Below the pieces are notes generated by a model. It ran no database searches. It was given only the letters and a program-made list of their open reading frames with translations, and was not told the DNA's origin. The position numbers and the translations under genes were made by a program. From positions 1-64,000 of IMG/VR virus record IMGVR_UViG_3300025078_000002: DNA of 64,000 nt; one strand, 5' to 3'. Positions 1 through 26,926 of this stretch are shown piece after piece. Each line of letters opens with the position of its first letter. The first letter of the stretch is position 1. Source of the DNA: a virus (Duplodnaviria > Caudoviricetes).

Positions 1-1
1 A

Positions 2-1067: not shown

Positions 1068-1084
1068 CAGTAATAAGGAGGAAC

Positions 1085-3502: not shown

Positions 3503-3536
3503 CATATTAAAACTAGAAATCAGGGTTTTAAAATCC

Positions 3537-3564
3537 TGTAAAGTTTATAACTATAAGTTATAAT
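3537..3564 (+). promoter_or_regulatory. Putative early/middle promoter TGTAAA-N16-TATAAT
   Basis: TGTAAA 3537-3542, 16 nt spacer, TATAAT 3559-3564. Intergenic, upstream of clpP; same geometry at other operon starts. Confidence 0.7.
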
Positions 3565-3588
3565 AATAAAAAAATAAGGAAGTATTTA

Positions 3589-4194: not shown

Positions 4195-4224
4195 TATGTA
4201 CATTATCAAGAGAGGATTAACTTA

Positions 4225-5004
4225 ATGGAACAGTTTTCAACACTAAATAAAAACAAAGAGTATGTAACATTATTACAGCAAGAAGTAGGCGTTAAAGCGG
4301 ATGGTGTATATGGTCCTAACACACATAGGGCAGTTAGACAATACTACGGCATGCCTATTATGATGCATATGGGAAAAGTAGTTCCTATTGATTCTCCTTT
4401 GGAGATTGATTGGTCAGCACCTCTATATGAGCTTGATGATGGAACAAAAAACTGGTATAAAAGAAAATCAGACCCATCAACAATATGCGTTCACTGGGGA
4501 GGATTAAACACTAGACACTGCTATAACGTATTTAATCTTGCTAGAGGCAGACACGTTTCGTCTCACTTCTTAATTGGGCGAAATCATAAGACAGGTGAGT
4601 ATGAAATCTTACAGTGTTTAGATACAGGACTAGCTGCGTATCATGCTGGAAAGTTTAATAAATATTCTATTGGAATTGATATTTGTATGCATCCAGATGA
4701 CAAGTATTGGGAAAAAACTAAAGGTTGGTACCCAGATGCTGAACTTCAAGTATGCAAAATACCTGACTCTAGAGTTAGAGGTCGTAAACTTGTAATGATT
4801 GGCGATGAGTTTGCTGACGTTTGTCGACAATTTTTGCAATCTTTAAGAGAAGCAACTAATTTAGAAGACAAGCCTGTTTGCGAAAGCTTAGATGTTATGT
4901 CTGTAAAAGATGCAGCAGAATATAGTATAGTAGGTCACCACAACATTTCAGCAAAAAAATGGGATGTTATACCTTGGGCAGAAAAACTTTACTACTTCCT
5001 ATAG
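4225..5004 (+). CDS. N-acetylmuramoyl-L-alanine amidase (endolysin-like) with N-terminal peptidoglycan-binding repeat
   Basis: LLQQEVGVKADGVYGPNT (PG-binding), ICVHW, VSSHFLIG, AYHAGKFNKYSIGIDIC and IVGHHNI (Amidase_2-like). Confidence 0.8.
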   Translation: MEQFSTLNKNKEYVTLLQQEVGVKADGVYGPNTHRAVRQYYGMPIMMHMGKVVPIDSPLEIDWSAPLYELDDGTKNWYKRKSDPSTICVHWGGLNTRHCYNVFNLARGRHVSSHFLIGRNHKTGEYEILQCLDTGLAAYHAGKFNKYSIGIDICMHPDDKYWEKTKGWYPDAELQVCKIPDSRVRGRKLVMIGDEFADVCRQFLQSLREATNLEDKPVCESLDVMSVKDAAEYSIVGHHNISAKKWDVIPWAEKLYYFL

Positions 5005-5039
5005 ATAACATATATATAGATATTATCAGGAGAAAAGTT

Positions 5040-5489
5040 TTGAGTTATATATTAAGTTCTGCTTATTTAAAAAAAGAAATTATAACTACTACTAGTACTG
5101 TAAAGCAAGACCTAACAACATCTTTTGATGTAGTTGATGGTTCAACAATTGCTTATACTCCTGATGAAAAACATGGCACAGAAGTTATGTACGAATATAA
5201 TACAATATGGTCTTATAAAGATACTTCTTCAAAAATAATATTTAGACTAGTAGAATATAATACCGGCACTTCAACTTGGGATGAAATATCAGGATCTTAT
5301 GTAACAGTTAAGTCTACTAAAAGTGGAACTTCACAAATCAATTATAAGTATATTTTGCAAAAATGGACAGGTAGCAAGCAATTAAGAGTAGAATGTAAAG
5401 ATTCAACAACGAGTCTGGAAGGATATCTACATACAGATCATACTCAGACATTCTTGTTTGATCCGATTGTCGAATGTGTTACGATATAG
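5040..5489 (+). CDS. Beta-rich hypothetical protein, paralog A1 (possible tail/fibre-associated domain)
   Basis: TTG start after AGGAG at 5028-5032. Aligns with A2 (KQDLxTSFD, YEYNTxWSYKD, QLRxECKDSTTSLEGYLH). Confidence 0.75.
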   Translation: MSYILSSAYLKKEIITTTSTVKQDLTTSFDVVDGSTIAYTPDEKHGTEVMYEYNTIWSYKDTSSKIIFRLVEYNTGTSTWDEISGSYVTVKSTKSGTSQINYKYILQKWTGSKQLRVECKDSTTSLEGYLHTDHTQTFLFDPIVECVTI

Positions 5490-5502
5490 TTAGAGGAGCA
5501 TA

Positions 5503-5994
5503 ATGACTTACGTAATTAATAATAATTCAAATATTTATAATGTACAAGCACAAAAAGCTTCTTCAATAAGCACACAAACTGGAAGTTCTTCATATCAAGA
5601 CTTAGACACATCTGATATAACATATAACTGTGATGGTTCAGCGTCTAAAGTAATATATGAATATACAGCAAATTTTGTAAGAAGTGGTAGTTCAGGTGTT
5701 CTATTAGCAAAGTTAATGCAGTATAACACATCAACGTCAGCTTGGGAAATTGTTTCTGACTCGCATTATATAACATATGGATTTAGCGTAAATAATAGTT
5801 ATCCTAGAAATAATTATACATTTAAATATGTTATGGATGGATGGTCAGGTAGCAAGCAATTAAAAATGCAATGGAAAGTTATTTCTGGAGGTTTTATAGC
5901 TCATTGGTCTGAACAAATATTAAACTTTAGTAATGATGCTTTAGATACTTCATATAATATTAAACCTTTTCTTGTAGCGCATTCTATAAAATAA
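5503..5994 (+). CDS. Beta-rich hypothetical protein, paralog B1
   Basis: GAGGAG RBS. Aligns with B2 (QAQKASSISTQ, YQDLDxSDITYNCD, YEYTANFV, KPFLV). Confidence 0.75.
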   Translation: MTYVINNNSNIYNVQAQKASSISTQTGSSSYQDLDTSDITYNCDGSASKVIYEYTANFVRSGSSGVLLAKLMQYNTSTSAWEIVSDSHYITYGFSVNNSYPRNNYTFKYVMDGWSGSKQLKMQWKVISGGFIAHWSEQILNFSNDALDTSYNIKPFLVAHSIK

Positions 5995-6003
5995 GGAGTT
6001 ATA

Positions 6004-6456
6004 ATGTCATACAAGATTCATATTCAAGAAGGCAACATATCAAAAGTTAAAAATTCAACTGTTTCTAGCGTTACCAAACAAGTACCGAGTTTAACATATG
6101 AAACGCTTACAGGTTCTGAAATAACTTATACGCCAGAAGATAATTCGTCTTGGGTAGTATACGATGTTCAATTTACATGTCACAGTCGAACTTCTCAACA
6201 TGTAGCTATCTATTCTGTATTAACTTATGAAGACTCAGGTACAGAACATGCATTTGAGTACAGATTTACAGCCGACGGCTATAATGATGGTGGTTATCTT
6301 ATTAGATATAAGTTTTTAATACCTTCATATACAGGATCTAGAACTTGGAAACTTAAAACGCAGTATCATTACGGCGTTAATTGGTCTCAAGATTTACATG
6401 AAGATGAAGACGGGAATCAATATTTCCCTATTACGACAATGTACTCAATAACTTAA
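6004..6456 (+). CDS. Beta-rich hypothetical protein, paralog C1
   Basis: AAGGAG RBS. Aligns with C2 (TKQVP, GSEIxYxPE, FEYRFT, WSQDLHEDEDGNQYFPITTMYSI). Confidence 0.75.
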   Translation: MSYKIHIQEGNISKVKNSTVSSVTKQVPSLTYETLTGSEITYTPEDNSSWVVYDVQFTCHSRTSQHVAIYSVLTYEDSGTEHAFEYRFTADGYNDGGYLIRYKFLIPSYTGSRTWKLKTQYHYGVNWSQDLHEDEDGNQYFPITTMYSIT

Positions 6457-6479
6457 GTTGAACTAAATAAAGTTTGTAA

Positions 6480-6551
6480 GGACATCACAACATTTCAGCA
6501 AAGAAATGGGATGTTATACCTTGGGCAGAAAAACTTTATTATAATTTGTAG
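6480..6551 (+). pseudogene. Orphan copy of the last 23 codons plus stop of the amidase gene
   Basis: Encodes GHHNISAKKWDVIPWAEKLYYNL* versus ...LYYFL* at 4933-5004. No start codon or upstream amidase sequence. Confidence 0.85.
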
Positions 6552-6600
6552 ATATAATATATTGTAGATATATAAGTATATACGTTTGCAAGGAGTATCA

Positions 6601-7047
6601 ATGAGTTATATACTAGATTCAATATATCTTGATAAAAGTTTAACTATAACATCAACTTCTGACAAACAAGACTTATCAACTAGTTTTGATACAGTTATTG
6701 GATCAGAAATCACTTACACTCCTAACAACTTTGGGGTAAATGTTGTTTACGAATATAATACAGTTTGGTCTTATAAAGATAGCACATCAAAATTAATATT
6801 TAGATTAACTGAGTATAATGCAGGAACTTCTTCTTGGGATGTAATTGATGGTTCTTACGTGACGCTAAAATCATTAAAGAATGGCACAGGATTAATAAAC
6901 TACAAATATGCACAGCAAAAATGGGTAGGGAGTAAACAGTTAAGGTTGGAGTGTAAAGACTCTACAACTAGTTTGGAAGGTTATTTGCATTCAAACTGGT
7001 CACAAGATAAATATTATAATCCAAGCGTAGAATGCACAACTATTTAA
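6601..7047 (+). CDS. Beta-rich hypothetical protein, paralog A2
   Basis: ATG 6601 after AAGGAG; paralog of 5040-5489. Confidence 0.75.
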   Translation: MSYILDSIYLDKSLTITSTSDKQDLSTSFDTVIGSEITYTPNNFGVNVVYEYNTVWSYKDSTSKLIFRLTEYNAGTSSWDVIDGSYVTLKSLKNGTGLINYKYAQQKWVGSKQLRLECKDSTTSLEGYLHSNWSQDKYYNPSVECTTI

Positions 7048-7059
7048 AGGTTCACTAGA

Positions 7060-7548
7060 ATGTCTTATCTCATTAAAAACAAATCTAATGTTTCAAATGT
7101 ACAAGCTCAAAAAGCTTCTTCAATATCAACGCAAAGTGGTACTTCTAGTTATCAAGACTTAGATAGTTCTGATATTACTTATAACTGTGATAGTGCTGCT
7201 GTTAAAGTAGTTTATGAATACACAGCAAATTTTGTATATTCTGGATCAAGTGGCGTAGGTCAAGCGAAGCTAGTTCAATATAACACAGGAACATCAGCTT
7301 GGGAAGACGTAAGTAGCTCTCATTATGTTTCTTGGGGATTTTCAACAACTTCTAGTAATCCTAGATGTAATAATACTTTTAAGTTTGTAATTGATTCGTG
7401 GACGGGAAATAAACAGCTAAAATTACAATGGAAAGTAGTTTCTGGCGGATTGACAGCACACTCTTCGAACGGAATATTCGATTTAAGTAATACATTAGAC
7501 GCTTCTTATCTTATAAAACCTTTTCTAGTAATATATTCAATTAATTAA
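7060..7548 (+). CDS. Beta-rich hypothetical protein, paralog B2
   Basis: Paralog of 5503-5994. Confidence 0.75.
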   Translation: MSYLIKNKSNVSNVQAQKASSISTQSGTSSYQDLDSSDITYNCDSAAVKVVYEYTANFVYSGSSGVGQAKLVQYNTGTSAWEDVSSSHYVSWGFSTTSSNPRCNNTFKFVIDSWTGNKQLKLQWKVVSGGLTAHSSNGIFDLSNTLDASYLIKPFLVIYSIN

Positions 7549-7556
7549 GTGATACT

Positions 7557-8003
7557 ATGACAAACATAATACAAACAGATAGCATAACAAAAGTACAGAA
7601 TTCATTGGTTACAAGTGTTACAAAGCAAGTTCCAACACTTACATACACAGCTGTCACAGGTTCGGAAATCAGCTATGAACCAGAAAAAAATTCAACCTGG
7701 GTAGTATATGATATACAATTTACAATTCACAGTAGAGCTTCAGCACACGTAGGAATTTATGGTGCACTTGTATATGAAGATTCTGGTTCTGATGTTGCAT
7801 TTGAGTACAGATTTACAGGCGACGCGTATAATGATGGCGGGTATCTAATAAGGTATAAGTTTTTAATACCTTCATATACTGGAGAAAGAACTTGGAAGTT
7901 TATGTCTAAGTATCATTATGGTACTAATTGGTCTCAAGATTTACATGAAGACGAAGACGGGAATCAATATTTCCCTATTACGACAATGTACTCAATAATG
8001 TAA
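7557..8003 (+). CDS. Beta-rich hypothetical protein, paralog C2
   Basis: Paralog of 6004-6456. Confidence 0.75.
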   Translation: MTNIIQTDSITKVQNSLVTSVTKQVPTLTYTAVTGSEISYEPEKNSTWVVYDIQFTIHSRASAHVGIYGALVYEDSGSDVAFEYRFTGDAYNDGGYLIRYKFLIPSYTGERTWKFMSKYHYGTNWSQDLHEDEDGNQYFPITTMYSIM

Positions 8004-8010
8004 AATTAAG

Positions 8011-8038
8011 TGTAAAATTATTTTTTTTGTCATATAAT
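8011..8038 (+). promoter_or_regulatory. Putative promoter TGTAAA-N16-TATAAT upstream of thyX
   Basis: TGTAAA 8011-8016 and TATAAT 8033-8038. Confidence 0.7.
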
Positions 8039-8062
8039 CTTTATAACAAAGAAAGGATTCAT

Positions 8063-8764
8063 ATGGCAAATACACATTATCTTTATAACGATAATATAGG
8101 AAAAGTAGAACTAGTTCAAAGTATGGGAGCAGATATAACTGTTGTAAACTCAGCAAGAGTGTCTTTTGGCGTACAAAAAGACTTGTTAGATGAAAAAGAT
8201 AAGAAACTAATAAATTATCTTATTAAACATAAACATACTTCAACTTTAGAACACAATGTTGCAACTTTTAGAATTAAGGTGCCTTTGTTTGTTAGATCAC
8301 AACATCATAGACATAGAACTTGGTCTTATAATGAAGTAAGTAGACGATACACAGATGCAGATCTGCAGTTTTATATCCCTTCAAGTTACAGAACACAACA
8401 TAATTCAAATAGACAAGCTTCTAATTCTAATGATTTTATTAACCCACAAATGGATGTATATAATATTGAATTAGAAAGTAGACTGTGCAATGAAGCAGTA
8501 TCACATCATATTGACAACTCACTATTGCTCTTTGAAGATATGATTAAAAAAGGTGTTGCAAGAGAGCAAGCAAGAATGATTCTCCCCCAGAATCTATACA
8601 CAGAGTACTATGCTACAGCTAATCTAAATAACATATTAAAGTTTATTGAGTTAAGAACGCATGAAGGTGCACAATGGGAAATACAGCAGCTAGCTAATTC
8701 AATGTTAAATATAATAGAAGAAGTTTGGCCCGTGACTGTTTCTGCATATCGTTCTAAAAACTAG
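8063..8764 (+). CDS. thyX: Flavin-dependent thymidylate synthase
   Basis: VNSARVS, HTSTLEH, RHRTWSYNEVSRRY (canonical ThyX motif), AREQARMILPQ and HAQWEI-like segment. ATG 8063 after AAAGGA. Confidence 0.92.
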   Translation: MANTHYLYNDNIGKVELVQSMGADITVVNSARVSFGVQKDLLDEKDKKLINYLIKHKHTSTLEHNVATFRIKVPLFVRSQHHRHRTWSYNEVSRRYTDADLQFYIPSSYRTQHNSNRQASNSNDFINPQMDVYNIELESRLCNEAVSHHIDNSLLLFEDMIKKGVAREQARMILPQNLYTEYYATANLNNILKFIELRTHEGAQWEIQQLANSMLNIIEEVWPVTVSAYRSKN

Positions 8765-8806
8765 TTGTATTACCAGATAATTATTACATCTAACAGGAGT
8801 TAATCA

Positions 8807-9172
8807 ATGAAAAAGAATATATTACGAGAACGGCATAAAGATTTAGTCAATATGTTAGTAAGATGTAGAATTACTATAGAAGAAAGAGAAAATCCAACTG
8901 TGCTTGATATAATGACTGATATGAGAGCATTAAACGGTGTAGTAACTGTCAGACAAACAAGGCCACTTTCAGAGGTAATATCTACAGACAAGCATAGAAT
9001 AATTGAGCTAAATGTCTCTTATATACCGAAATTTGTTGAAACTAAAGGAAACATATTTCTTGAAGTTGCAAAATCACTAAAAAAAGTTGAAGGTGTTAAA
9101 ATTGTTAAAATTATGGAACACGACAACGATATAATCAATGGAAAATTACAAAATAAACCGCTTATTTTTTAA
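8807..9172 (+). CDS. Hypothetical protein (ILRE leader; possible small alpha/beta fold)
   Basis: CAGGAG RBS, 121 aa ORF, ATAATTA 23 nt upstream. Confidence 0.65.
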   Translation: MKKNILRERHKDLVNMLVRCRITIEERENPTVLDIMTDMRALNGVVTVRQTRPLSEVISTDKHRIIELNVSYIPKFVETKGNIFLEVAKSLKKVEGVKIVKIMEHDNDIINGKLQNKPLIF

Positions 9173-9181
9173 AGGAAAAAA

Positions 9182-9412
9182 ATGAAATTACACGATAATT
9201 CAATTGCACATATTGCTAAAATAATTCAAATGGCTATTTTATCAGGTACAGATATTGTAGATCACTTAAGAATGGTAAGATTCAGTCCTATCGAAGATGA
9301 CTTTCTTGTTATTGATGAGGAATATGAAGAGATATTTAATTCTTCGATTAATAAAATGATGAATAACATACCAGCGACAGAAGACAATATTGAGAATGAA
9401 AAACAAGACTGA
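9182..9412 (+). CDS. Hypothetical protein
   Basis: AAAGGA RBS; co-linear 76 aa ORF in the operon. Confidence 0.65.
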   Translation: MKLHDNSIAHIAKIIQMAILSGTDIVDHLRMVRFSPIEDDFLVIDEEYEEIFNSSINKMMNNIPATEDNIENEKQD

Positions 9413-15988: not shown

Positions 15989-18754
15989 TTAAGACAGAAT
16001 TAAAGAAATGTATTTTTTAATTAGCGTCTCATTTGATTCTTGCGGATCTTGCGAGTTTTGTTTTTGTAGAAGTAGATGTCTAGTCTCACTAATTAATTTA
16101 AGTATAGATCCTTTACCAAACATTTTTTCTATATAATCTATTACAATTTTAATACCTTCGTCAGGTAAATATAAATTGGCGTCAGGTGCAAGTGTTACAG
16201 CATAATTGACGCTTCGATGTATGCCCTTAGCAATTTTAAGAACTTGCCGCTGACTCATCCCACTAAAAAACAATGATAGCAGACTAGAATTATTTGCAAC
16301 CCGTTCAAATAAATCGTTGTCACCTTCTGTATAATGTATTCTACCTAGTTCTAAACTATTCATGTGAGCTTCTGGTATTGTTTTTAGCAGAGCAATAGTC
16401 TCAAGATATTGTTCTACACCTTTCGAAGATCTTAACAAAAGCATTAAAAGATCATTAAAATGTTTTTTGCTGTTTGGTTTGATATCAATATAACTAAAAC
16501 AAGCTTCACATAAAGAGATGAGTGTCTGAAATGGTAGCTTTATTTCATAACTAATCCATCTTAAATACATTTGGAGATTGCTAATATCTGGAGGAATATC
16601 ACCTGAAATTATTCCTGAAACTAATGCTTCAGCGTATTCTTTGTTCTTTGTTTCAACTTTTCTATTATTTTTAAGTATTAATCGGGTTTCTGCAGGCGTT
16701 TGTGATTGCTTGAGTTCATCAATTAAAGGACTCCAATTGTTTGCAGTGTCAAGCTTTTGATTAATAAATTGGTGGTATTTCTGGTTTGTAATCTGCCTTT
16801 TAATGTTTTCATCTCTAATGTCTAATAAATTTTGTTCAACACCCTGTCTAGCTTTTGTGCCTAATCTATCGATGTCTTCAAAAATTATATCAATTATTTT
16901 ATTTAAAAGATCAATTCTTACACAGCTTATTATTTCATTCTGGAATAAGGTAAAAACACCACGAGTCATATTGTCAATAGATCCTGCAATTTGTGCTGAA
17001 GAAATCGTATCAAGCTCTTCAAACAGAAACTGCTGAATTTCAGGTAATTCTGTAAAGTATTTTCTTTCCCAAGGAAGCTTGCAAATTGCTGTTTTATAGT
17101 CTTTGTTTTTTGTCGGAAAGTAAAAAGTAAGCATTTTTATTAAAACATCAAGTATATCTTGGCCAGTAAGATTATCTAAGCGACTTCGATATCTTGCTAA
17201 TTGAGCAACTTGATACAATTCTACGTTCATCATTAAACGACTATTGTCAAGACTGTTTAACTTATTTAGAGACTTTCTAGAAAATAACATATCATTTACA
17301 GATAAGTGGCCGCCATATTGTATGTTACGAAAAACTAACATACCATAGCTGACTTTGTCTGCATTTTCTATGTAAATATCAATAAACCTTTCGAAATCTT
17401 TTTTTGTAACACTTTGCTTGTTTATTGGAGAAGTTATTACATCTAAAAATCTTGGAAAATAATAATTAACGTCATTGTCTGTGAAATAGTTTATTTTTTT
17501 ACAAAGTTCAGTTATTAAGTTTAAGCATTCTAAGTGAATATTTTCTATGTTGTTTTGGTCAACTTTAAAGGCTTGTAATGGATTACCACCTGTGCCAACA
17601 GCTTTATTTATTTTGTTTTTTGTATTTGAAAATAAAACGTGGTTAATAAACATACTTTCTATTTTTAAGTTATCATTAACAACTAAGTCATAAACCTTTT
17701 GTATTGTTTCGTATGTTAGCTCAGGAGAGTCTGCAACTTTATTGATTTCATTGCACCAATAAAGTGTAGGCAAAAGTCCTTCTACACTTTGTAGTTGATC
17801 TTGTTTAAAGTCTTCTTCGTCAACATCGTTTTCTTGCGCAATATCATTTAGCGTTTCAAAGTCTATGTCTAGTGCTAGCTTTTGGTCTGGAAAAAAACTC
17901 GAAACATTTGAATGCCATTCTACTTCTTTACCTACAACTCTACCTAATTCTACAACTTTTGCTTTTCTTTGAGGATTGTAAACAACGCAAACAGGTCCGT
18001 CATGGTCACCTCTAAATATAATACCGTCTATGACAGAAGTTAAATACTTGGGTGTATAATTACCCATGACGTATTTAGTAAAAGAAAAAGCAGAAGATGA
18101 AGTTAGATTTTTATTGTTAGGATCGTCCACTAAATAACTAGTCCCATTTATTCGTTGTGTTAATGGAGTGCAATATTGTTTTAAGTCTTCTTTTGTTTTC
18201 GCAAATAATTCGTCTTTTGCAAGAGAAGAAAACTTTTCATCAAACAACTTTTCTATCTGGTCTTCTAGCTTCCATTTATCACCGTGAATTTGTTTAGCCA
18301 AATCTTCAAAAAATATAATATAATTGCTAATGTCAACTTCAAATTTAAAACATATATCCCCATACAAATGAACAATAGAAGGGTTAAAATCGTAACATGT
18401 ATATAATCCTGGGCCGTACATATCTCCGTGGCCAGGTGTAAACCCAGTTCCCACTGTATATGGGTCTGATAGCAGTTCTGTAATTCCTTGAAACTCTATA
18501 TCGCTTTTACTTTGCTTGGTTACACCACTCATGGCTTTATCATAAGTAACTCTATTAATAATGTTTCTAGCACGATCTTTGACTTTTCTTGGCTTGCTAG
18601 GCTTAAAAGGTTTTTCTGTATCTTTTACATAAGACGAGTAATCTTTAAACTTTTTTGCACCTGTTAAGTGATAAACTGAAAGCTTGTTTCCTCTTAGCTC
18701 TATTCCTTTATTTTCTTTAATAAGAAAATTTTCTTTTAAACTGTACTTTGTCAT
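15989..18754 (-). CDS. Large protein (921 aa) with [LI]xE leader and N-terminal ADP-ribosyltransferase-like domain
   Basis: Start MTKYSLKENFLIKE after an AAGG RBS. VYHLTG, YGPGLYTCYD and DGIIF resemble PARP/ART-fold strands; helical C-terminal part. Confidence 0.65.
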   Translation of the reverse strand: MTKYSLKENFLIKENKGIELRGNKLSVYHLTGAKKFKDYSSYVKDTEKPFKPSKPRKVKDRARNIINRVTYDKAMSGVTKQSKSDIEFQGITELLSDPYTVGTGFTPGHGDMYGPGLYTCYDFNPSIVHLYGDICFKFEVDISNYIIFFEDLAKQIHGDKWKLEDQIEKLFDEKFSSLAKDELFAKTKEDLKQYCTPLTQRINGTSYLVDDPNNKNLTSSSAFSFTKYVMGNYTPKYLTSVIDGIIFRGDHDGPVCVVYNPQRKAKVVELGRVVGKEVEWHSNVSSFFPDQKLALDIDFETLNDIAQENDVDEEDFKQDQLQSVEGLLPTLYWCNEINKVADSPELTYETIQKVYDLVVNDNLKIESMFINHVLFSNTKNKINKAVGTGGNPLQAFKVDQNNIENIHLECLNLITELCKKINYFTDNDVNYYFPRFLDVITSPINKQSVTKKDFERFIDIYIENADKVSYGMLVFRNIQYGGHLSVNDMLFSRKSLNKLNSLDNSRLMMNVELYQVAQLARYRSRLDNLTGQDILDVLIKMLTFYFPTKNKDYKTAICKLPWERKYFTELPEIQQFLFEELDTISSAQIAGSIDNMTRGVFTLFQNEIISCVRIDLLNKIIDIIFEDIDRLGTKARQGVEQNLLDIRDENIKRQITNQKYHQFINQKLDTANNWSPLIDELKQSQTPAETRLILKNNRKVETKNKEYAEALVSGIISGDIPPDISNLQMYLRWISYEIKLPFQTLISLCEACFSYIDIKPNSKKHFNDLLMLLLRSSKGVEQYLETIALLKTIPEAHMNSLELGRIHYTEGDNDLFERVANNSSLLSLFFSGMSQRQVLKIAKGIHRSVNYAVTLAPDANLYLPDEGIKIVIDYIEKMFGKGSILKLISETRHLLLQKQNSQDPQESNETLIKKYISLILS

Positions 18755-18779
18755 TATAAGCCTTGTTATATCTTTTATG

Positions 18780-18808
18780 TGTAAATATAAATATAATGTT
18801 GTTATAAT
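18780..18808 (+). promoter_or_regulatory. Putative promoter TGTAAA-N17-TATAAT upstream of dnaE fragment 1
   Basis: TGTAAA 18780-18785 and TATAAT 18803-18808 in the divergent intergenic region. Confidence 0.6.
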
Positions 18809-18834
18809 AAATAAAAACAAGAAAGGTATATAAT

Positions 18835-19752
18835 TTGTCTATTGATTTAATAACTCCACCAGACAGGTTTGTTTCTCTTCATTCTCACTCAACTTTTAGC
18901 ACTTTTGATGGATTAGGTTACCCATCAGATCATATAGACTTCGTACTTTCTGAATCACAAGGTATGGATGCCTGGGCGTTAACAGATCACGGTAATGGTA
19001 ACGGTCTTGCTCACGCACACTCGCACGCTGTCAAAATGCAAAAGGCTGGGAAAAAGTTTAGACAAATCTACGGAGTCGAATTCTATTTTGTTCCCTCACT
19101 AGATCAATGGACTAATGACTACGCAGCTCATAAACAAGCAATTAAAGATGCTAAAACAGCAGCAGCTGCTGAAAAGAAAAGTAAAGAAAAAATCATCATT
19201 GATGCTGATGATGAAAGCGGTGGTCTTGTTATAGAGGATGAAGATGAATCCAAAAAGATTGATATCCTTAAAGACGAATGGAAACGTCGCTATCACTTAG
19301 TCGTCACAGCAAGAAATAGAAAAGGCCTTAATAACCTATTCACTCTTGTAAAGAAGTCATATAAAGACGGCTTCTATAGATACCCACGCATTGACTTTAA
19401 AATGCTTAAAGAACACGGCGAAGGCTTACACGTAAATTCTGCATGTTTACACCCAGACACATCTTTACAGACGTCAGCTGGAAGTTTATCTATTAAAGAA
19501 GTTGTAGAAAGATTTAACAAAGGTGAAGAAATTCAAATTCTTTCTTACAATGAATATACTAGCAAAGCTGAGTTTAAAAAAATTATTTGGGGTGATAAAA
19601 CACGAAAGAATGCTAAGCTATTAAGAATTAAAGACAAAGATGGGAATGAAATTAAACTTACTCCTGATCATCGTGTCCTTGTTAAGGTCAAAGGTTGGAT
19701 TGATGCGAAAGATATTATAGCAGGAGACAAAATTATCAATATAAACCTCTAA
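18835..19752 (+). CDS. dnaE: DNA polymerase III alpha, fragment 1 of 4 (PHP N-part, 203 aa extein) plus split intein N-half 1
   Basis: SLHSHS, TDHGN, GVEFY, HLVVTARN and PRID are PHP motifs; extein ends ...VNSA, followed by CLHPDT. Confidence 0.93.
   Translation: MSIDLITPPDRFVSLHSHSTFSTFDGLGYPSDHIDFVLSESQGMDAWALTDHGNGNGLAHAHSHAVKMQKAGKKFRQIYGVEFYFVPSLDQWTNDYAAHKQAIKDAKTAAAAEKKSKEKIIIDADDESGGLVIEDEDESKKIDILKDEWKRRYHLVVTARNRKGLNNLFTLVKKSYKDGFYRYPRIDFKMLKEHGEGLHVNSACLHPDTSLQTSAGSLSIKEVVERFNKGEEIQILSYNEYTSKAEFKKIIWGDKTRKNAKLLRIKDKDGNEIKLTPDHRVLVKVKGWIDAKDIIAGDKIININL
19444..19749 (+). mobile_element. Split intein 1, N-half (102 aa)
   Basis: Block A CLHPDT, block B IKLTPDHRVL, ends GDKIININL followed by TAA. 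Confidence 0.92.
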
Positions 19753-19780
19753 GACAATATACTTAGTATTGTCTAGGAGG
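19746..19780 (+). promoter_or_regulatory. RBS-sequestering hairpin with ATACTTA at the loop
   Basis: AGACAATA (19752-19759) pairs with TATTGTCT (19767-19774). CCTCT (19746-19750) can pair with AGGAGG (19775-19780) with single-nt bulges. Confidence 0.65.
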
Positions 19781-19788
19781 CAGTTATT

Positions 19789-20739
19789 ATGAAAACAAAA
19801 AAGATTAATATATGGAAAATTAGAGAAGAAATACTTTTTTCATACTACGAAAAAGAAGAAATACAAAGTTTTATTGATAAACTTTATTCTTTTTCGATGA
19901 TTTACCAGATGATTTTACGAGACAATAAAAAATGCTTTAATGATTTAAACATATCATTACAGACTTTTTCAACACTTTTAAAAGATAAAATTGGCTTTAT
20001 ACTTCACCCAAATAATCAAAAAACTTCAACAGCGTTTAGGAGCCAATTCAAATTTCCTAAAAATACTACAATGGAAGAAATTGAAAATTATTATTTGAAG
20101 TCTTCTTTAAAAGGTCAAAAAGGTACAGTAAAGTCGAGAAAAAAATCTGGGAAACCTTACAATGAAAAACAGACTTTAGACTTTTGGTTAAGCATTACAA
20201 ACAACAAAGAAGAAGCAATACAAAGTTTAGAAAAGTATAAAAGATCTAATTCTCCTTTTTGTATTGAGTTTTGGACTAAGAAAGGATTAAGTGAAGAGAA
20301 TGCAAATAAAATAATCTCTGAAAGAGCTGTCAAAGGTGCGATTAATGCTCTTAAAAAAACATCACAGCCTAAAACTGAAAAGCGAATTGAATCTTTACTC
20401 AAGAAAAATAACATTGAATATTCTACGCAATATCGAATATCACTAGATAAAGATGAAACTGTGTATAATAAAAAGTGCTATGTATATGACTTTTATTTAC
20501 CTACATTTAATTTAATTATTGAATGTCACGGTCTTTATTGGCATGCTCATCCTTCGTTATACAACGAAAACTCTGTATTAAACTTTCCAAGTGGACAAGT
20601 AAAAGCAATAGACGTTTGGAATTCTGATTTGTATAAAATGAAAGTTGCAGAAAAAAGAAATTACCGCTATATGACTATATGGGAAAATGAAATTGACAAT
20701 ACAATTAGTTTAATTAGAGATCGTGTAAATATTGATTGA
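19789..20739 (+). mobile_element. Free-standing Vsr/DUF559-like endonuclease between the halves of split intein 1
   Basis: KTEKRIESLL, YDFYLPTFNLIIECHGLYWH and MTIWENE. Confidence 0.82.
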
Positions 20740-20769
20740 TTGTTTTAAAATATAAAAAAAGGAATAATT

Positions 20770-20898
20770 TTGAAAGAAATTCAAACAAAATATATTGAAG
20801 TTGATCTAATTGAAGAGATAGATGAAACTTCTGATGTTTATGATATCACTGTCGAAGATAATCATAATTTTTTTGCTAATAACATTTTAGTTCATAAC
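20770..20898 (+). mobile_element. Split intein 1, C-half (43 aa)
   Basis: Block F VYDITV...HNF and block G LVHN; +1 residue is Cys (20899). Confidence 0.92.
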
Positions 20899-22020
20899 TG
20901 TTTAGGCGGGATTTTTAGCAATAGAATACTCCGCGGCGTTGCACATGATAAGTCACGTGACGAAATCCAAAAAGATCTTTTAAACCTTACAGACAGATTT
21001 ACAGACGCAGTTGGCATTGAAAACTTCAAACTAGAACTACAGTTCAATAAGCTAAACAAACAACACGTTGTTAATGACTACCTCATAGAACATCATAAAC
21101 TAACTGGCATTCCTCTCATCTCAACAGCAGATTCTCATTACCCGAGCAACGATAAATGGCAAGCAAGAGAGCTATACAAGAAACTTGGCTGGCTCGGTAA
21201 GAAAGATAACTTAACTCTTCCAGCATTTGAAGATCTTAAATGTGAGCTGTATCCAAAAAATGCACAACAAATGTGGGATGAGTTCCTTGAAGGGTACAAA
21301 GAACACGACTTCTATAAAGGGAACGAGCAGCTCGTTAAAGAGTCAATAGAAAGAACACACGACATTGCCTGGAATGACTTTGAAGATACATGGATAGATG
21401 TAAGCGCAAAACTACCAACAATAACAATACCTAACAAGACGCCCTTTAAACACCTATCAGACTTGGTTAAAAACGCTCTCGTTACTGAAGGGTTACATAC
21501 TAATAAAGAGTACGTAGATAGAGCTAAATATGAATTGTCTGATATTAAGTATCTTGGACACGAAGCTTACTTTATTACAATGTATGAGATCTTTAAAAAA
21601 GCTGAAACAAAGACATTATTTGGAGCTGGAAGAGGCTCAGGTGCGGGGAGTTTAGTTAACTACTTGTTAGGCATTACACAACTCGATCCAATTCCTTATA
21701 ACTTGCTTTGGAGTAGATTCTTAGGCAGACATAGATGTCTAGACGAAGATACTTACGTTATATCTGAATATGGTAAAAAGAAGATTAAAGATGTTAGTGA
21801 AGGCGAAAAAGTACTAACGCATACAGGTCAGTATAGAAAAATTATTGATAAGGCTATAACACAACACGATATGGCTGTTGAAATAAAATTTAATGGTCGT
21901 AAAATTATTTGCTCACCTAATCATCGTTGGATTGTTAATCGTAATGGTAACGAAGTAGAAACAATGGCATGCCATTTACAAAAAGGTGACAAACTAATTC
22001 GATTAGCCAGAGATAAATAA
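20770..22020 (+). CDS. dnaE: DNA polymerase III alpha, fragment 2 of 4: IntC1 (43 aa) - extein (279 aa) - IntN2 (94 aa)
   Basis: N-terminal VYDITVEDNHNFFANNILVHN|CLGG. TADSHY, GRGSGAGSLVNYLLGIT, LLWSRFLGRHR|CLDEDT. TTG after AAAGGAATAA. Confidence 0.93.
   Translation: MKEIQTKYIEVDLIEEIDETSDVYDITVEDNHNFFANNILVHNCLGGIFSNRILRGVAHDKSRDEIQKDLLNLTDRFTDAVGIENFKLELQFNKLNKQHVVNDYLIEHHKLTGIPLISTADSHYPSNDKWQARELYKKLGWLGKKDNLTLPAFEDLKCELYPKNAQQMWDEFLEGYKEHDFYKGNEQLVKESIERTHDIAWNDFEDTWIDVSAKLPTITIPNKTPFKHLSDLVKNALVTEGLHTNKEYVDRAKYELSDIKYLGHEAYFITMYEIFKKAETKTLFGAGRGSGAGSLVNYLLGITQLDPIPYNLLWSRFLGRHRCLDEDTYVISEYGKKKIKDVSEGEKVLTHTGQYRKIIDKAITQHDMAVEIKFNGRKIICSPNHRWIVNRNGNEVETMACHLQKGDKLIRLARDK
21736..22017 (+). 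mobile_element. Split intein 2, N-half (94 aa)
   Basis: CLDEDT, IICSPNHRW and GDKLI, then TAA at 22018-22020. Confidence 0.9.
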
Positions 22021-22029
22021 AGGAATAAA

Positions 22030-22170
22030 ATGAAAGACAATAATCTATACGAGATTGAGGAAATCAACTTTGTACATTACGATCAAGATATGATTGATAT
22101 TGAAGTAGAAGGCGATCACACTTTCTACGTTTCAGAAGACCCCATGAATGAATTTATCTTGACACATAAT
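22030..22170 (+). mobile_element. Split intein 2, C-half (47 aa)
   Basis: IDIEV..HTFY and THN; +1 residue is Thr (22171). Confidence 0.9.
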
Positions 22171-22809
22171 ACAAGCTGGCCGGATATTGACACAGATGCT
22201 GGAGACCGAGATGAGCTGATCAACGCAGCAAAAGAGTTATATGGCGACGATGCTGTTATTCCAGTATCAAACTTTAACACGCTTAAGCTTAAATCACTTG
22301 TAAAAGACATTGCAAAGTTTTATGATATTCCATTTGACGAAGTCAATAAGGTAACTGGTCCTCTTCAAGATCAAGTTATGCAGAAAGCAATGGATAAAAA
22401 TCAAGAAAAGTCTGTATTTGTTCTTAAGCATGAAGACTGCATGAAATATTCACCAGAGTATAACGAATTTATGACAACATATCCAGAAGTTGCTGAACAT
22501 GTAGATACTTTGTTTATGCAAAATAGAAGTTGTTTTACTAAAGATACACATATCTTGACTGATCGTGGTTATATGGACATTGAAGAACTTAATCCTGTGT
22601 CTGATGGAATTGTTTATATTGACAATGAAGGCAATCAAAAAGTTAATCACGACTATGAATTGCATTATATGGGTAAAAAAGAAGTGTTTGAAATTGAAAC
22701 AGAATGTGGAAAAAAGATTAAACTTACTCCAGATCATGAAGTTATGACCCAAGATGGGTATAAAAAAGTATGTGAACTAAGTGAAAGTGATATATTGATT
22801 AAATTTTAA
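22030..22809 (+). CDS. dnaE: DNA polymerase III alpha, fragment 3 of 4: IntC2 (47 aa) - extein (120 aa, catalytic PDIDTD) - IntN3 (92 aa)
   Basis: IDIEVEGDHTFY...ILTHN|TSWPDIDTD and QNRS|CFTKDT. ATG after AAAGGAATAA. Confidence 0.93.
   Translation: MKDNNLYEIEEINFVHYDQDMIDIEVEGDHTFYVSEDPMNEFILTHNTSWPDIDTDAGDRDELINAAKELYGDDAVIPVSNFNTLKLKSLVKDIAKFYDIPFDEVNKVTGPLQDQVMQKAMDKNQEKSVFVLKHEDCMKYSPEYNEFMTTYPEVAEHVDTLFMQNRSCFTKDTHILTDRGYMDIEELNPVSDGIVYIDNEGNQKVNHDYELHYMGKKEVFEIETECGKKIKLTPDHEVMTQDGYKKVCELSESDILIKF
22531..22806 (+). mobile_element. Split intein 3, N-half (92 aa)
   Basis: CFTKDT, IKLTPDHEV and SDILIKF, then TAA. Confidence 0.92.
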
Positions 22810-22810
22810 C

Positions 22811-22851
22811 ATTTGCACCGCTTGCATATAGTTAATAGCAGGAGGTGAAAT
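22811..22851 (+). promoter_or_regulatory. RBS-sequestering hairpin with ATAGTTA in the loop
   Basis: ATTT-G-CACC-G-CTTGC (22811-22825) pairs with GCAGG-A-GGTG-AAAT (22838-22851), covering GGAGGTG. ATAGTTA at 22828-22834. Confidence 0.65.
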
Positions 22852-22855
22852 TAAC

Positions 22856-23842
22856 ATGTTATGTAAAATTTGTAATAAAGAATATAAAAATCTTGGAAGA
22901 CATGTAAGTGTTCATTATAAAAATGTAAAGTCTAAGTCAAAAAAAATGTTATATTTTCATGATATTTATAAAAACAAGTATGATATTGCTCGTGAGTATC
23001 TTGAAAGTAAAAAGTCTGCCAACCAAATAGCAAAAGAAGTCACACAACTATTTAATCTTTTTCCAGTTCAAAAAGGTGATATTTTAAACTTCTTAAAATA
23101 TATGAAAGTTAAAAAAAGAACAACTTCTGAAGCTGGTAAAGAGTATTACAAAGAAAATCCTGTTTGGAATAAAGGTTTGACTAAATATGATCATGCAAGT
23201 ATAGAGAAATATGCAGATAGTAGAACTGGAAAGAATAATCCAATATACTCACTTACTGAAAAAGAAAGAGAAGAAAAGATTTATTATTGGCGATTTAAGT
23301 CTGATGATGAACTCTTTGCAATAAGAGCTAAGATCGGAAAATCATTAAAGGAAGGTTATGCTTCAGGCAGAATAAAACATATATCTAAAACACATCCAGA
23401 AAAATTTAAAGAAATACACGCGAAAATGCTGTCTGGATATTTTGATGCATTAAATAATGGTACCATTAAAAGACAAAGTTACACATCTAGTTATGAAAAA
23501 AGAATAGCAAATATTCTAGAAGAGTTAGACATAAGTTTTATACAGCAGAAGTCTTGTAATAAAAAATATAGGTACGACTTTTTCTTGAAAGACTTTAATC
23601 TTTATATTGAATTTAATGGTGACTACTGGCATGCTAATCCGAATCAGTTTAATGAAAATTATTATCATCCTCATAAAAAGATTTTAGCAAGAGAAATATG
23701 GGAGTATGATAATGCCAAGCGTGTAAATGTAATAAATAGTGGTTATAATTTTTTAACAATATGGGAATGTGACGTCAAAGAATTCAATAGACAGCACTTG
23801 AAGGAGTATATAATTGGAATTATTAAGAATCAAAAGCATTAA
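22856..23842 (+). mobile_element. Free-standing Vsr/DUF559-like endonuclease between the halves of split intein 3
   Basis: PVWNKGLTK (NUMOD-like), SSYEKRIANIL, YDFFLKDFNLYIEFNGDYWH and FLTIWECD. Confidence 0.82.
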
Positions 23843-23951
23843 GAATACAAACACAATTCAACCCGTTTATGATATACATCATAATATTGATAATAAGAAT
23901 TTTTATGATGAGCATCCCAATCTTATTGCAAACAATATTACAATATCAAAC
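23814..23951 (+). mobile_element. Split intein 3, C-half (46 aa)
   Basis: PVYDI...HPNLIANNITISN; terminal Ser-Asn (no penultimate His); +1 residue is Cys (23952). Confidence 0.88.
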
Positions 23952-25721
23952 TGTGGGCGTCACGCTGGGGGTGTTATTATAGCAGACGCAGACCTTCTTG
24001 AGCAATCGATGCCAATTGTTGGTGTTCGTGGAGAACTACAAACACCGTGGACTGAAGGTATGAACTTTAGGAATCTTGAAGACAACGGTTTTCTAAAGTT
24101 TGACTTCTTAGGTTTAACGCTTCTTAAAGATGTAGAGAATTGCATTTATAGAATCCTAAGAAAAAGCGGAATGAAAAATCCTACATTCACAGATGCAAGA
24201 GCATTCTTTGATAAGCATTTAAACTGTAGGTTTGTCAAACAGGATGACCCTAAAGTTTGGGAACATGTGTATAAGGATGGTCACTTCGTTGGCATATTCC
24301 AGTTCACAAATCAGGGTGCTAGACAGTTTTCAATGGATGCATCGCCTGTAAGTATACAGGAGTTAGCAACAATTACTGCGATATATCGCCCTGGACCGCT
24401 TAAAGCAAATGTGCACAAGAAATATGTTAAGGCAAAAAACAATGCTAATGATATTGTGTACGATCATCCTATCATAGAAGAAGTACTTGGATATACTTAC
24501 GGCTACTTTTGCTTTCAAGAGCAATTCATGTTGATGGCACAAAAGCTTGCTGGGTTTTCACCGGGTGAGAGTGATAAGTTACGAAAGACGCTTGTAAAGA
24601 AATCACTAGATACTTTGCATTCTAAAGGATCAGAAAAGGCAATTGCTAGAGAGAAGTTTATTAAAGGTGCCAAAGAGCTCAATGACATTCCTGAGAGTAT
24701 TTCTTCGAAGCTCTGGCAAGACATAGAAGGTTTCGCAGTTTATGGCTTCAATCTTTCCCATGCAGTTGCATATGCTATTGGGTCGTATTATGCGGCATGG
24801 CTACATACACATCACGAGACTGAGTGGATGGCAGCAATATTGCAATCTGAGAATGGTAATCCTAAAGGAATGTCAAAAGCCATTTCAGAGATTAAGTCAT
24901 TTGGATATGAAATTGCTGCAATAGATATAAACCACTCTGAAGCTGAATGGGAATATTCTGATGTGTTGAAAGCTTTTGTGCCGCCGTTGACATCGCTTAA
25001 AGGAGTAGGTGATAAAGCTGTTGAAGAAGTATTTGAAAATAGACCATATAAAAACTTATCAGATCTATTTTACAATGAAGTAGGAGAATGGAGACATTCC
25101 AAGCTGAACAAAACAGCTTTTTCGTCATTAGCAAAGATGGAAGCATTTAAGTCTCTCCAGGAGTTTCAAGATGATGTATTAGATAATCATAAGCAAATGT
25201 ATGATTTAATCTTGGATAACTATAATCTACTCAAGAAAGGTAGATATGGAATGACAAAAACTGCCGTAAAAAGAGCGTTAAAGAATGATGAAGAGATTGT
25301 GCCTATTGTTGATGAGTTGATTGCGAAGTATAAGGTTGTTAGTGATTGGAGTAGGAATGAAAAGATTAAGAACTATTTTGAACTCAGTAATGACGCAAGT
25401 GACGACCTATTGTTTCCACCTAGATTATTGAACAAGTTAAAACAGAAAGAAATCTCCAGTGTGTTTGATATACCTTCTGGAGATCGTGGTATTGGATGGT
25501 TTACAGTGACTGAGGTTATTCGTAAGACGACTAAGAACGGGAAGGCGTTTATGAGGTGGAAGTGTGTAGACTCAGACAATCGTAGCGGATGGTTACGAGT
25601 TTGGGGGTCATTAGATGGCGAGGTTGAGTTTAGTACGTGGCTTGCTGATGTGAAGAATGATGCTGGATGGGGAATGTCTACGAATCTAGGTAAGCTTAAA
25701 AAGATTAACGCTTTTGATTAA
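23814..25721 (+). CDS. dnaE: DNA polymerase III alpha, fragment 4 of 4: IntC3 (46 aa) plus 589 aa extein (palm, fingers, HhH, OB)
   Basis: ISN|CGRHAGGVII, LKFDFLGL, GIFQF, AIYRPGP, FQEQFM, YGFNLSHA, LKGVG (HhH) and terminal OB-like strands. TTG after AAGGAG. Confidence 0.93.
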   Translation: MELLRIKSIKNTNTIQPVYDIHHNIDNKNFYDEHPNLIANNITISNCGRHAGGVIIADADLLEQSMPIVGVRGELQTPWTEGMNFRNLEDNGFLKFDFLGLTLLKDVENCIYRILRKSGMKNPTFTDARAFFDKHLNCRFVKQDDPKVWEHVYKDGHFVGIFQFTNQGARQFSMDASPVSIQELATITAIYRPGPLKANVHKKYVKAKNNANDIVYDHPIIEEVLGYTYGYFCFQEQFMLMAQKLAGFSPGESDKLRKTLVKKSLDTLHSKGSEKAIAREKFIKGAKELNDIPESISSKLWQDIEGFAVYGFNLSHAVAYAIGSYYAAWLHTHHETEWMAAILQSENGNPKGMSKAISEIKSFGYEIAAIDINHSEAEWEYSDVLKAFVPPLTSLKGVGDKAVEEVFENRPYKNLSDLFYNEVGEWRHSKLNKTAFSSLAKMEAFKSLQEFQDDVLDNHKQMYDLILDNYNLLKKGRYGMTKTAVKRALKNDEEIVPIVDELIAKYKVVSDWSRNEKIKNYFELSNDASDDLLFPPRLLNKLKQKEISSVFDIPSGDRGIGWFTVTEVIRKTTKNGKAFMRWKCVDSDNRSGWLRVWGSLDGEVEFSTWLADVKNDAGWGMSTNLGKLKKINAFD

Positions 25722-25733
25722 CAATATTTACAA

Positions 25734-26300
25734 CTAAAATCTGTAAGCATCAATGTCTTGTTGCGACATTAAACCAGACTGCTGCAAAAACATTTTAAAA
25801 GCTTCGCTTTCGTTTGATATACCGACAAAAAGTTTAGAAGGACCACCAGCTACACGACAAGCCTTAAAAAATTCTTCTTCAAGCATATCAATTTGATTCT
25901 TCATGTCAGCACGAAACTTGTCTTGAAGTTGTCTGTTTTCAAACGCCTCGAGAATAATGTCAATCGAACCAGCTACGGTAACACCTACGCTAATTGTAGT
26001 TAAAGCTGAACCTGCAATTAATGCAGGTGTCCCTACAGCTAACATTGCAGCCATACCAATTACAAAAGCAGAAACTCCAGGATAGTATTCTTGTATCTCT
26101 TGTCTTCCACTTGCACTTCTCATTGCGTTAACAGCTTCTTCCCAGCTGTTTACTTTTTGCCTTAAGATATTTGACTTTTCATGACCGCTAACACCTGCTA
26201 GCGCGTCAAAGTGATGCATATCACCCATCATTTCATTTAATCGTGATTCTTTGATTACTTGTCTGATCAGCGATCGTAAACGTCTTTCTGTAATTTTCAT
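25734..26300 (-). CDS. Hypothetical protein with MKITERRLRS...IKE leader and a hydrophobic hairpin
   Basis: AGGAG RBS. VSAFVIGMAAMLAVGTPALIAGSALTTISVGVTVAG is a predicted membrane segment. Confidence 0.75.
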   Translation of the reverse strand: MKITERRLRSLIRQVIKESRLNEMMGDMHHFDALAGVSGHEKSNILRQKVNSWEEAVNAMRSASGRQEIQEYYPGVSAFVIGMAAMLAVGTPALIAGSALTTISVGVTVAGSIDIILEAFENRQLQDKFRADMKNQIDMLEEEFFKACRVAGGPSKLFVGISNESEAFKMFLQQSGLMSQQDIDAYRF

Positions 26301-26357
26301 ATTTGTTTTCTCCTAAAATATGTTCTTAAATATGTTCTTAAATATGATAAAATTATT

Positions 26358-26435
26358 GCTGATGTGAAGAATGATGCAGGATGGGGTATGTCGTCAAGCC
26401 TTGCTAAACTTAAAAAGATTAATGCGTTTGACTAA
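26358..26435 (+). pseudogene. Orphan copy of the last 25 codons plus stop of dnaE
   Basis: ADVKNDAGWGMSSSLAKLKKINAFD* versus ADVKNDAGWGMSTNLGKLKKINAFD* at 25644-25721. Confidence 0.88.
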
Positions 26436-26449
26436 GAGTTAAATTTAAA

Positions 26450-26926
26450 CTACATAATATATTTGTTAGTATCTGGGTCAATTTCCATAGGAGGATTTTG
26501 AACACTAAATACTCCTCTTTCCATAGCTATTTGGTCTATTTTGCTAATAATCGACTTAAGCTGATCTATACTAAATTTATCACCATAATTATATCTCTCA
26601 ATTGCATCACGATCTAAACCATATTGCTCAATTCTTGGATCTTCTGCAGACCGTCTGTCTGAATAAAAATTGTTGTTTACTTCAATCATATCGATGCCTT
26701 CTTTTTGACATACTTCTCTATATTTGAGCATTTTTAACATATATTTTCTATCAGTATTGCCAGAGTATGATGTATCTGCCCATTCTCTATTTAACATTCT
26801 TCCCATATCTTTAATATAAGACTTTACATATTCTTCAACTTCTTCAACTTTAGGATCGTGGTTATCTATACTTTCTTTTATAACACTTCTAATAATTGAG
26901 CGTAAACGTCTTTCTGTAATTTTCAT
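26450..26926 (-). CDS. Hypothetical protein with MKITERRLRS...IKE leader
   Basis: Same 5' end as 25734-26300 but an unrelated body. Confidence 0.75.
   Translation of the reverse strand: MKITERRLRSIIRSVIKESIDNHDPKVEEVEEYVKSYIKDMGRMLNREWADTSYSGNTDRKYMLKMLKYREVCQKEGIDMIEVNNNFYSDRRSAEDPRIEQYGLDRDAIERYNYGDKFSIDQLKSIISKIDQIAMERGVFSVQNPPMEIDPDTNKYIM

Follow-up and report, generated by a model that had tools for sequence, protein, structure and literature searches.

In a marine phage (Duplodnaviria; Caudoviricetes), the gene for the alpha subunit of DNA polymerase III (dnaE) appears to have been invaded at three sites by independent intein elements, leaving four chains that would be rejoined by three protein trans-splicing reactions. 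We put the probability of this reading at roughly 0.85. The dnaE locus lies on the + strand at 18835-25721 of the window, the whole 64,000-nucleotide (nt) stretch analysed here, which covers positions 1 to 64,000 of the IMG/VR virus record IMGVR_UViG_3300025078_000002 (74.8 kb, ~30% complete by CheckV). An earlier note on this DNA had described four same-strand dnaE open reading frames (ORFs), each with its own ribosome-binding site (RBS). The four dnaE pieces and their RBSs stand, but the locus has six ORFs, the two missed being homing-endonuclease genes (HEG1 and HEG2). All are on the + strand. ORF1 (18835-19752) encodes extein 1 followed by the N-terminal half of intein 1 (IntN1), and HEG1 (19789-20739) lies between the halves of that intein. 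ORF3 (20770-22020) encodes the C-terminal half (IntC1), extein 2 and IntN2, and ORF4 (22030-22809) encodes IntC2, extein 3 and IntN3. HEG2 (22856-23842) lies between the halves of intein 3, and ORF6 (23814-25721) encodes IntC3 and extein 4. The RBSs of the dnaE ORFs are purine-rich, namely AAAGG-8 nt-TTG for ORF1 (start at 18835), AAAGGAATAATT-TTG for ORF3 (20770), AAAGGAATAAA-ATG for ORF4 (22030) and AAGGAG-7 nt-TTG for ORF6 (23814). The six ORFs probably share one transcript. No + strand terminator was found inside the locus. Sigma-70-like promoter matches were no more frequent than expected from shuffled sequence.

The four exteins (203+279+120+589 amino acids, aa) sum to 1191 aa, with a predicted spliced mass of 136.2 kDa; the lengths, the sum and the junction peptides are all as the earlier note gave them. 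Once spliced, the junctions would read VNSA-CLGG, GRHR-TSWPDID and QNRS-CGRHAGG. The exteins are colinear on the DnaE model PRK05673 (positions 4-152, 145-398, 399-495 and 508-1014; Pfam and NCBIfam searches). Extein 1 (18835..19443, 203 aa) is the DnaE N-terminus with most of the PHP domain (Pfam PHP, E 6.9e-22), and extein 2 (20899..21735, 279 aa) carries the end of PHP and the start of the palm (Pfam DNA_pol3_alpha, E 5e-23). Extein 3 (22171..22530, 120 aa) begins TSWPDIDTD; its residue 2 aligns to residue 398 of E. coli Pol III alpha (2hnh) and its PDIDTD to residues 400-405, making its two catalytic aspartates the equivalents of D401 and D403. Extein 4 with its stop (23952..25721, 589 aa) contains CGRHAGG, the third catalytic aspartate in KFDFLGL, the fingers (DNA_pol3_finger, E 1.2e-35) and an HhH region (HHH_6, E 1.4e-9), and its residue 2 corresponds to E. 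coli residue 509 in the alignment. Together the pieces hold what is expected of a bacterial Pol III alpha, that is PHP, a palm with three catalytic aspartates, fingers and HhH in colinear order. The PHP domain is shared between pieces 1 and 2, and the catalytic aspartates between pieces 3 and 4. By alignment, the insertion sites fall within the PHP motif SA/CLGG (a slash marks a junction), between E. coli residues 396 and 397, and between residues 507 and 508.

Intein splicing regions, N-terminal on one side and C-terminal on the other, were found at every break in the profile searches that the earlier note had proposed (Pfam, NCBIfam/TIGRFAM; TIGR01445, TIGR01443, PF14890). IntN1 with its TAA (19444..19752) is 102 aa long (CLHPDT...TPDH...; TIGR01445 intein_Nterm, E 4.9e-13) and its nearest solved intein is NrdJ-1 (8ubs, E 6.5e-11); IntC1 (20770..20898, 43 aa, TTG start) ends in ...VYDITVEDNHNFFANNILVHN and matches TIGR01443 intein_Cterm (E 1.1e-8). 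IntN2 with its TAA (21736..22020, 94 aa, CLDEDT...SPNH...) is closest to gp41-1 (6riz, E 8.5e-4), and IntC2 (22030..22170, 47 aa, ATG start) reads ...MIDIEVEGDHTFYV...ILTHN. IntN3 with its TAA (22531..22809, 92 aa, CFTKDT...TPDH...; TIGR01445, E 4.5e-11) is nearest to solved DnaE inteins (7qil, E 5.5e-7; Npu DnaE 2keq, E 3.4e-6). IntC3 (23814..23951, 46 aa), ...VYDIHHNIDNKNF...NNITISN, starts with TTG behind AAGGAG and overlaps the last 29 nt of HEG2. All three inteins have the motifs of class 1, with Cys1, TxxH (TPDH, SPNH and TPDH), block F, a terminal Asn and a +1 nucleophile, the junction ends being VHN/C, THN/T and ISN/C. The penultimate His is present in inteins 1 and 2 and replaced by Ser in intein 3 (ITISN), as it is in the related loci L084, L085 and L090. 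A penultimate His is common among active inteins, not universal, and its absence slows Asn cyclisation in some of them. The three N-halves share 25-33% pairwise identity, and by sequence the inteins belong to three families, NrdJ-1-like, gp41-1-like and DnaE-like. Net charges (IntN/IntC) are +4/-9 for intein 1 and +4/-12 for intein 2; the polarity is reversed in intein 3, whose IntN carries -9.

A scan of IMG/VR for related dnaE loci, a survey that the earlier note had also suggested, returned 80 loci of 46-96% identity, including 76 full-length genes, and yielded both empty alleles and a contiguous mini-intein (L080, site 2). The gene is uninterrupted in 60 of the 76 full-length relatives, and there exteins 1 to 4 abut in one frame with no gap; the predicted splice junctions therefore match the empty alleles exactly. 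Among these relatives, 14 further genes have one insertion and one has two. The relatives of the window phage have genomes of 235-284 kb, one of them with terminal repeats at 239,550 bp, and the window phage is a marine phage with a genome of roughly 240 kb.

The residues that follow the inteins speak for splicing. At site 1 the +1 Cys is native to the PHP motif SA/CLGG, and all relatives share it. Occupied alleles of site 2 invariably carry Thr at +1, and empty ones carry Thr (40) or Val (26). At site 3, the 73 empty alleles without exception carry Ile, Val or Leu in that place, and Cys is found only in alleles that bear the intein (the window, L084, L085, L087 and L090). This nucleophile travels with intein 3, which is hard to explain unless splicing occurs. 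The six intein halves also appear to be under strong purifying selection, with ratios of nonsynonymous to synonymous substitution (dN/dS) of 0.03-0.10 against relatives of 80-93% identity, compared with 0.08-0.20 for the endonuclease genes and 0.01-0.10 for the exteins, all of them approximate because dS is near 1 and thus near saturation. For the individual halves, dN/dS is 0.07-0.08 for IntN1 (against L004 and L091), 0.06-0.07 for IntC1 (88% identical in L004, L084 and L091), 0.06-0.09 for IntN2 (87-88% identical in L084, L073, L088 and L090), 0.03-0.05 for IntN3 and 0.04-0.06 for IntC3 (89-93% identical in L084, L085, L087 and L090); IntC2 is 77-87% identical in L084, L073, L088 and L090. 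With the exact empty alleles, the conserved residues, the mini-intein of L080 and the same pieces in other samples, these observations all support the original proposal of three split inteins and three trans-splicing reactions for one DnaE.

The three elements come and go independently, because contigs from two other marine samples, placed on the dnaE stretch at >=90% identity, carry differing subsets of them. These contigs match it at ~99.5% across intein 3 and HEG2, and they keep this element, while intein 1 (joint 19443>20899) and intein 2 (joint 21735>22177, where Val-Ser codons form the junction) are precisely absent. A contig of run X2 keeps intein 1 with HEG1 cleanly deleted (joint 19752>20695, 942 nt, 7-nt microhomology) and represents split intein 1 in a natural form devoid of its endonuclease gene. 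At site 2, relatives display a whole series. L080 has a contiguous mini-intein homologous to IntN2 at the same site; L018, L073, L079, L032 and L035 have a full endonuclease gene, the last four with inteins closely related to intein 2 of the window; and L090 has a 77-aa endonuclease remnant (L090:606-839). Endonuclease-less splits are found in the window, in L084 with the same spacer layout and in L028 with overlapping frames. In L088, a 251-kb scaffold, the IntN2 and IntC2 pieces are separated by 5.2 kb that contains three opposite-strand genes (L088:3090-13582). One gene in this lineage therefore displays every stage of the proposed gene-breaking pathway: empty, contiguous mini-intein, endonuclease-fractured, remnant, endonuclease-less split, and halves that lie apart with unrelated genes between them.

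Other members of the lineage exceed the window, with four and at least five splits. Six insertion sites are used, namely sites 1, 2 and 3, residue 247 of extein 2, and residues ~119 and ~279 of extein 4. Two JGI contigs, L090 and L091, share an overlap of 1645 nt at 100% identity and jointly encode dnaE in five pieces with four split inteins (L090:1-5909; L091:1017-5285). The ENA contig L084 (9306 nt; dnaE at 1-7619) has at least five split inteins, at sites 1, extein 2 residue 247, 2, 3 and extein 4 residue 279, together with four endonuclease genes of at least three families.

A model that would account for these data is that three unrelated intein-plus-endonuclease elements independently entered dnaE at three conserved sites, and that each intein then split at the usual point of endonuclease insertion. 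Inteins 1 and 3 would still enclose their Vsr-like endonuclease genes, and intein 2 would have lost its own, leaving a stop, an RBS and a start. The four chains would pair through cognate IntN and IntC halves, and three class 1 reactions, each with Cys1 and terminal Asn cyclisation and with +1 Cys, +1 Thr and +1 Cys respectively, would yield a 1191-aa, 136-kDa Pol III alpha. During co-infection, the endonucleases would presumably spread the elements to empty alleles. The earlier note had further envisaged an ordered four-chain assembly; nothing points to an obligatory order of the three reactions. A conserved and probably essential polymerase would thus tolerate from three to at least five simultaneous trans-splicing requirements, and the pile-up of inteins is best read as tolerated selfish elements, not adaptation. 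We regard it as unlikely that multi-step assembly by three to five orthogonal, co-resident split inteins is instead a retained feature, with intein 2 already domesticated; if it were, assembly could serve, for example, as a checkpoint coupling maturation of the polymerase to balanced expression or to redox conditions in the infected cell.

Less probable still is that at least one of the intein pairs no longer splices and acts as a mere non-covalent clamp. Phage Aeh1 provides a precedent, an NrdA split by mobE whose fragments are reported to assemble through interaction domains without splicing (PMC3045599). Purifying selection would act on a clamp too, and the Ser that replaces the penultimate His of IntC3 would fit one. 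In contrast, Cys1, TxxH, the terminal Asn and the +1 Cys, Thr and Cys are kept in the three inteins and in their relatives, and a Cys that takes the place of the native Ile, Val or Leu at site 3 only where the intein is present is sensible only if the +1 nucleophile is used.

Intein 2 calls for separate consideration, since its halves share a reading frame and enclose no endonuclease gene. The TAA and the 9-nt spacer AGGAATAAA that separate them (22018..22029) are unstructured, and the spacer carries the RBS of ORF4. Read-through of this TAA, with only three sense codons beyond it, would fuse ORF3 to ORF4, making intein 2 effectively contiguous and cis-splicing and leaving two trans reactions; the contiguous allele of L080 lends this idea some plausibility. 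We nevertheless consider it very improbable: the spacer RBS is nearly identical to the one that precedes IntC1 and is followed by an ATG, the identical layout of stop, 9 nt and ATG is kept in L084 at 88% identity, and the halves in L028 are in different frames. Stop-codon recoding, which would make the inteins contiguous, was rejected because TAA, TAG and TGA all serve as stops in the spacers of the locus, and we saw no sign of it; at sites 1 and 3, several stops separate the pieces.

The sequence itself is well attested. Logan contigs from the probable source run reproduce the complete dnaE stretch with 0-2 differences and include the in-frame TAA at 22018, so that read errors hiding contiguous inteins, a concern of the earlier note, are not seen. 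Gene calls on 13 contigs (JGI, Logan and ENA data) include the exact ORF4 protein, and the exact ORF3 protein likewise recurs on further contigs. All 20 of the 20 sequencing runs listed for this stretch are labelled marine or seawater metagenomes. Most of them contain about half of the sampled words; the sole RNA run among them contains only 0.06. That the locus is a strain assembly chimera or a decaying pseudogene with no working polymerase is the least credible of the alternatives: metagenome populations are mixed, the source run has minor contigs with other joints and the record covers only ~30% of the genome, but the independent Logan contigs and exact ORF3 and ORF4 proteins just described, exteins with no frameshift or internal stop, and the recurrence of these combinations of pieces in L084, L085 and L090/L091 (80-90% identity, dN/dS far below 1) all speak against it. 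Joining at the RNA level is also unlikely, because an Rfam search of the region found no intron (its sole match was a chance-level snoRNA, E 0.24) and because the locus has no internal + strand terminator. The RNA run (X20) gave thin contigs of extein parts only, with an E1/E2 joint that we rejected as RNA splicing; the same joint recurs in DNA runs and is an empty DNA allele.

Some further points have to be weighed, most of them against the trans-splicing reading as a whole. Splicing is read here from sequence, and the selection that would support it is measured by ratios close to the saturation of dS. IntC3 ends in ISN, without the penultimate His. Modelling of IntN3 with IntC3 gave a score of 0.60 compared with 0.01 for the best control, a mark reached by 51 of 78 solved complexes and by 2 of 108 mismatches, with contacts agreeing at >=96% between runs and a partner pLDDT >=68; this lends weak support to their pairing, and the pass may reflect likeness alone, because solved DnaE inteins resemble the pair. 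Mutual orthogonality is plausible because the inteins come from three different families and the polarity of intein 3 is reversed. Inteins 1 and 2 have the same charge polarity, and one chain carries both IntC1 and IntN2, so that some mis-pairing, or some cyclisation of extein 2, may occur. The Vsr-like assignment of the endonucleases comes from weak scores (E 0.03 and 8e-4, below curated cut-offs). Finally, all five large relatives surveyed (G001-G005) have a short family A polymerase-like ORF of 356-403 aa, and none of the five has a family B polymerase, which makes DnaE probably, not certainly, the replicative enzyme and its essentiality a presumption.

A split DnaE intein is also known from cyanobacteria (Ssp, Npu), where, as we propose here, Pol III alpha is rebuilt by trans-splicing. 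IntN3 is nearest to these inteins in sequence and shares the acidic polarity of their IntN; unlike the phage gene, with three splits in adjacent ORFs, the cyanobacterial one has a single split, at a different site, with its pieces in distant loci. The dnaE of Trichodesmium erythraeum, in work by Liu and Yang (2003, cited in PMC2874743), is said to carry multiple inteins. These are reportedly three, two of them contiguous and cis-splicing, whereas all three inteins of the window are split and adjacent. In contrast to the Aeh1 NrdA/mobE system, in which a free-standing endonuclease gene is also reported to fracture a replication-related phage gene and the pieces to reassemble non-covalently with no functional intein (PMC3045599), the inteins of the window have complete splicing motifs.

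The closest parallel is the work on fractured genes by Dassa et al. (2009; PMC2677866), which included the GOS loci DnaE-1, -2 and -3 with three DnaE insertion points, one of these loci with part of a second intein, and which defined the "Vsr-like" endonuclease family. As in those genes, IntN lies on the upstream and IntC on the adjacent downstream piece of the same strand, here at all three breaks. A free-standing endonuclease gene lies between the halves, here in inteins 1 and 3 and not in intein 2, which instead resembles their endonuclease-less gp41-7. Their hairpin before the endonuclease start is strong at HEG1 and weak at HEG2, and their overlap of the endonuclease 3' end with the IntC start is found at HEG2, not at HEG1. 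Their loci, unlike the present one with three splits and four chains, were short assemblies with one complete split each. Every component is therefore of a known type (Dassa et al., 2009) and no new mechanism is implied; what may be new is the number of splits in one gene.

The earlier note had known of no described case with three splits in one protein, and we found none either: in the literature searched, natural proteins had single splits and tandem trans-splicing was engineered, and no natural protein needing at least three such reactions was found there, which is not proof of absence. Engineered one-pot or tandem trans-splicing joins three to six polypeptides (Pinto et al., 2020, PMC7090010; Humberg et al., 2025, PMC12707363). 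One such system combined gp41-1 with NrdJ-1 as an orthogonal pair (Pinto et al., PMC7090010), the two families to which inteins 2 and 1, respectively, come closest; the man-made systems differ from the present one, which would be natural and in a polymerase that appears to be under strong purifying selection. Efficient, mutually orthogonal split inteins are in demand for protein engineering (PMC7090010, PMC12707363). Co-resident inteins must discriminate their partners in one cytoplasm and are therefore ready-made orthogonal candidates.

This candidate set includes a cysteine-less type wanted by protein chemists. In several relatives, an intein at GFNK/SH in extein 4 has Ser1, a QSN end and Ser at +1 (L090:3570-3851 and 4833-4946; also L073-L077 and L084), which makes it a candidate for a natural split intein of the cysteine-less type. 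The position at which cyanobacterial DnaE is split is a few residues away. L088 has a further split intein at residue ~119 of extein 4.

Both endonuclease genes of the dnaE locus are free-standing and putatively Vsr-like, of the I-Bth0305I type. HEG1 (19789..20739, + strand, 316 aa; PD-(D/E)XK) matches PHROG homing/HNH endonuclease families at E 1e-8 to 2e-13, has a dN/dS of 0.13-0.18 and ends 30 nt before ORF3. An RNA hairpin at 19746..19780 (+) pairs its RBS (AGGAGG) with the end of ORF1, stop codon included; at -17.4 kcal/mol (z -4.9) it was reached by 0 of 200 shuffles, and by masking the RBS it probably throttles HEG1 translation. HEG2 (22856..23842, +, 328 aa) shares 27-28% identity with HEG1, matches PHROG endonuclease families and, below the cut-off, TIGR00632 Vsr (E 8.4e-4). 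It is 82-84% identical in L084, L085, L087 and L090 (dN/dS 0.08-0.20), and its 3' end overlaps the start of ORF6 by 29 nt. The hairpin in its 5' leader (22807..22861, +), over a GGAGG RBS, is weaker; 11 of 200 shuffles attained its -14.2 kcal/mol (z -1.8). A profile of HEG1, HEG2 and their relatives weakly matched Vsr (1cw0, E 0.031) and a mobile-intron nuclease (3r3p, E 0.046), and the YDF...GxxWH...WE motifs align in this weak-scoring comparison.

Some minor observations concern the ends and surroundings of the gene. A megablast search against the INPHARED phage collection gave no match to the window. Extein identities of 96% for E1-E3 and 84% for E4 were considered as a sign of recent recombination (a mosaic), an idea dropped since dS is near 1 throughout. 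In L084, the last endonuclease gene is followed by a minus-strand gene (7600-9306) and not by the final dnaE piece, an odd 3' end that could be a rearrangement or an assembly chimera. Upstream in the window, a large minus-strand gene at 15989-18820 adjoins dnaE. Downstream of the true dnaE stop, the last 32 dnaE codons recur as an orphan copy (69% protein identity) at 26337-26432, separated from that stop by a minus-strand gene at 25734-26300, which has an N-terminus (MKITERRLRS...) in common with the minus-strand gene at 26450-26926. The orphan end and the minus-strand gene look as if a cassette had inserted here and supplied a new end for the gene. Several relatives carry the first ~21 dnaE codons a second time, 0.1-1.1 kb before the true start (L009:15-77; L010:212-274; L013:7065-7127; L085:7210-7272; L086:55-117; L088:2877-2930), which suggests that the 5' end of dnaE is also a target of cassette insertions.

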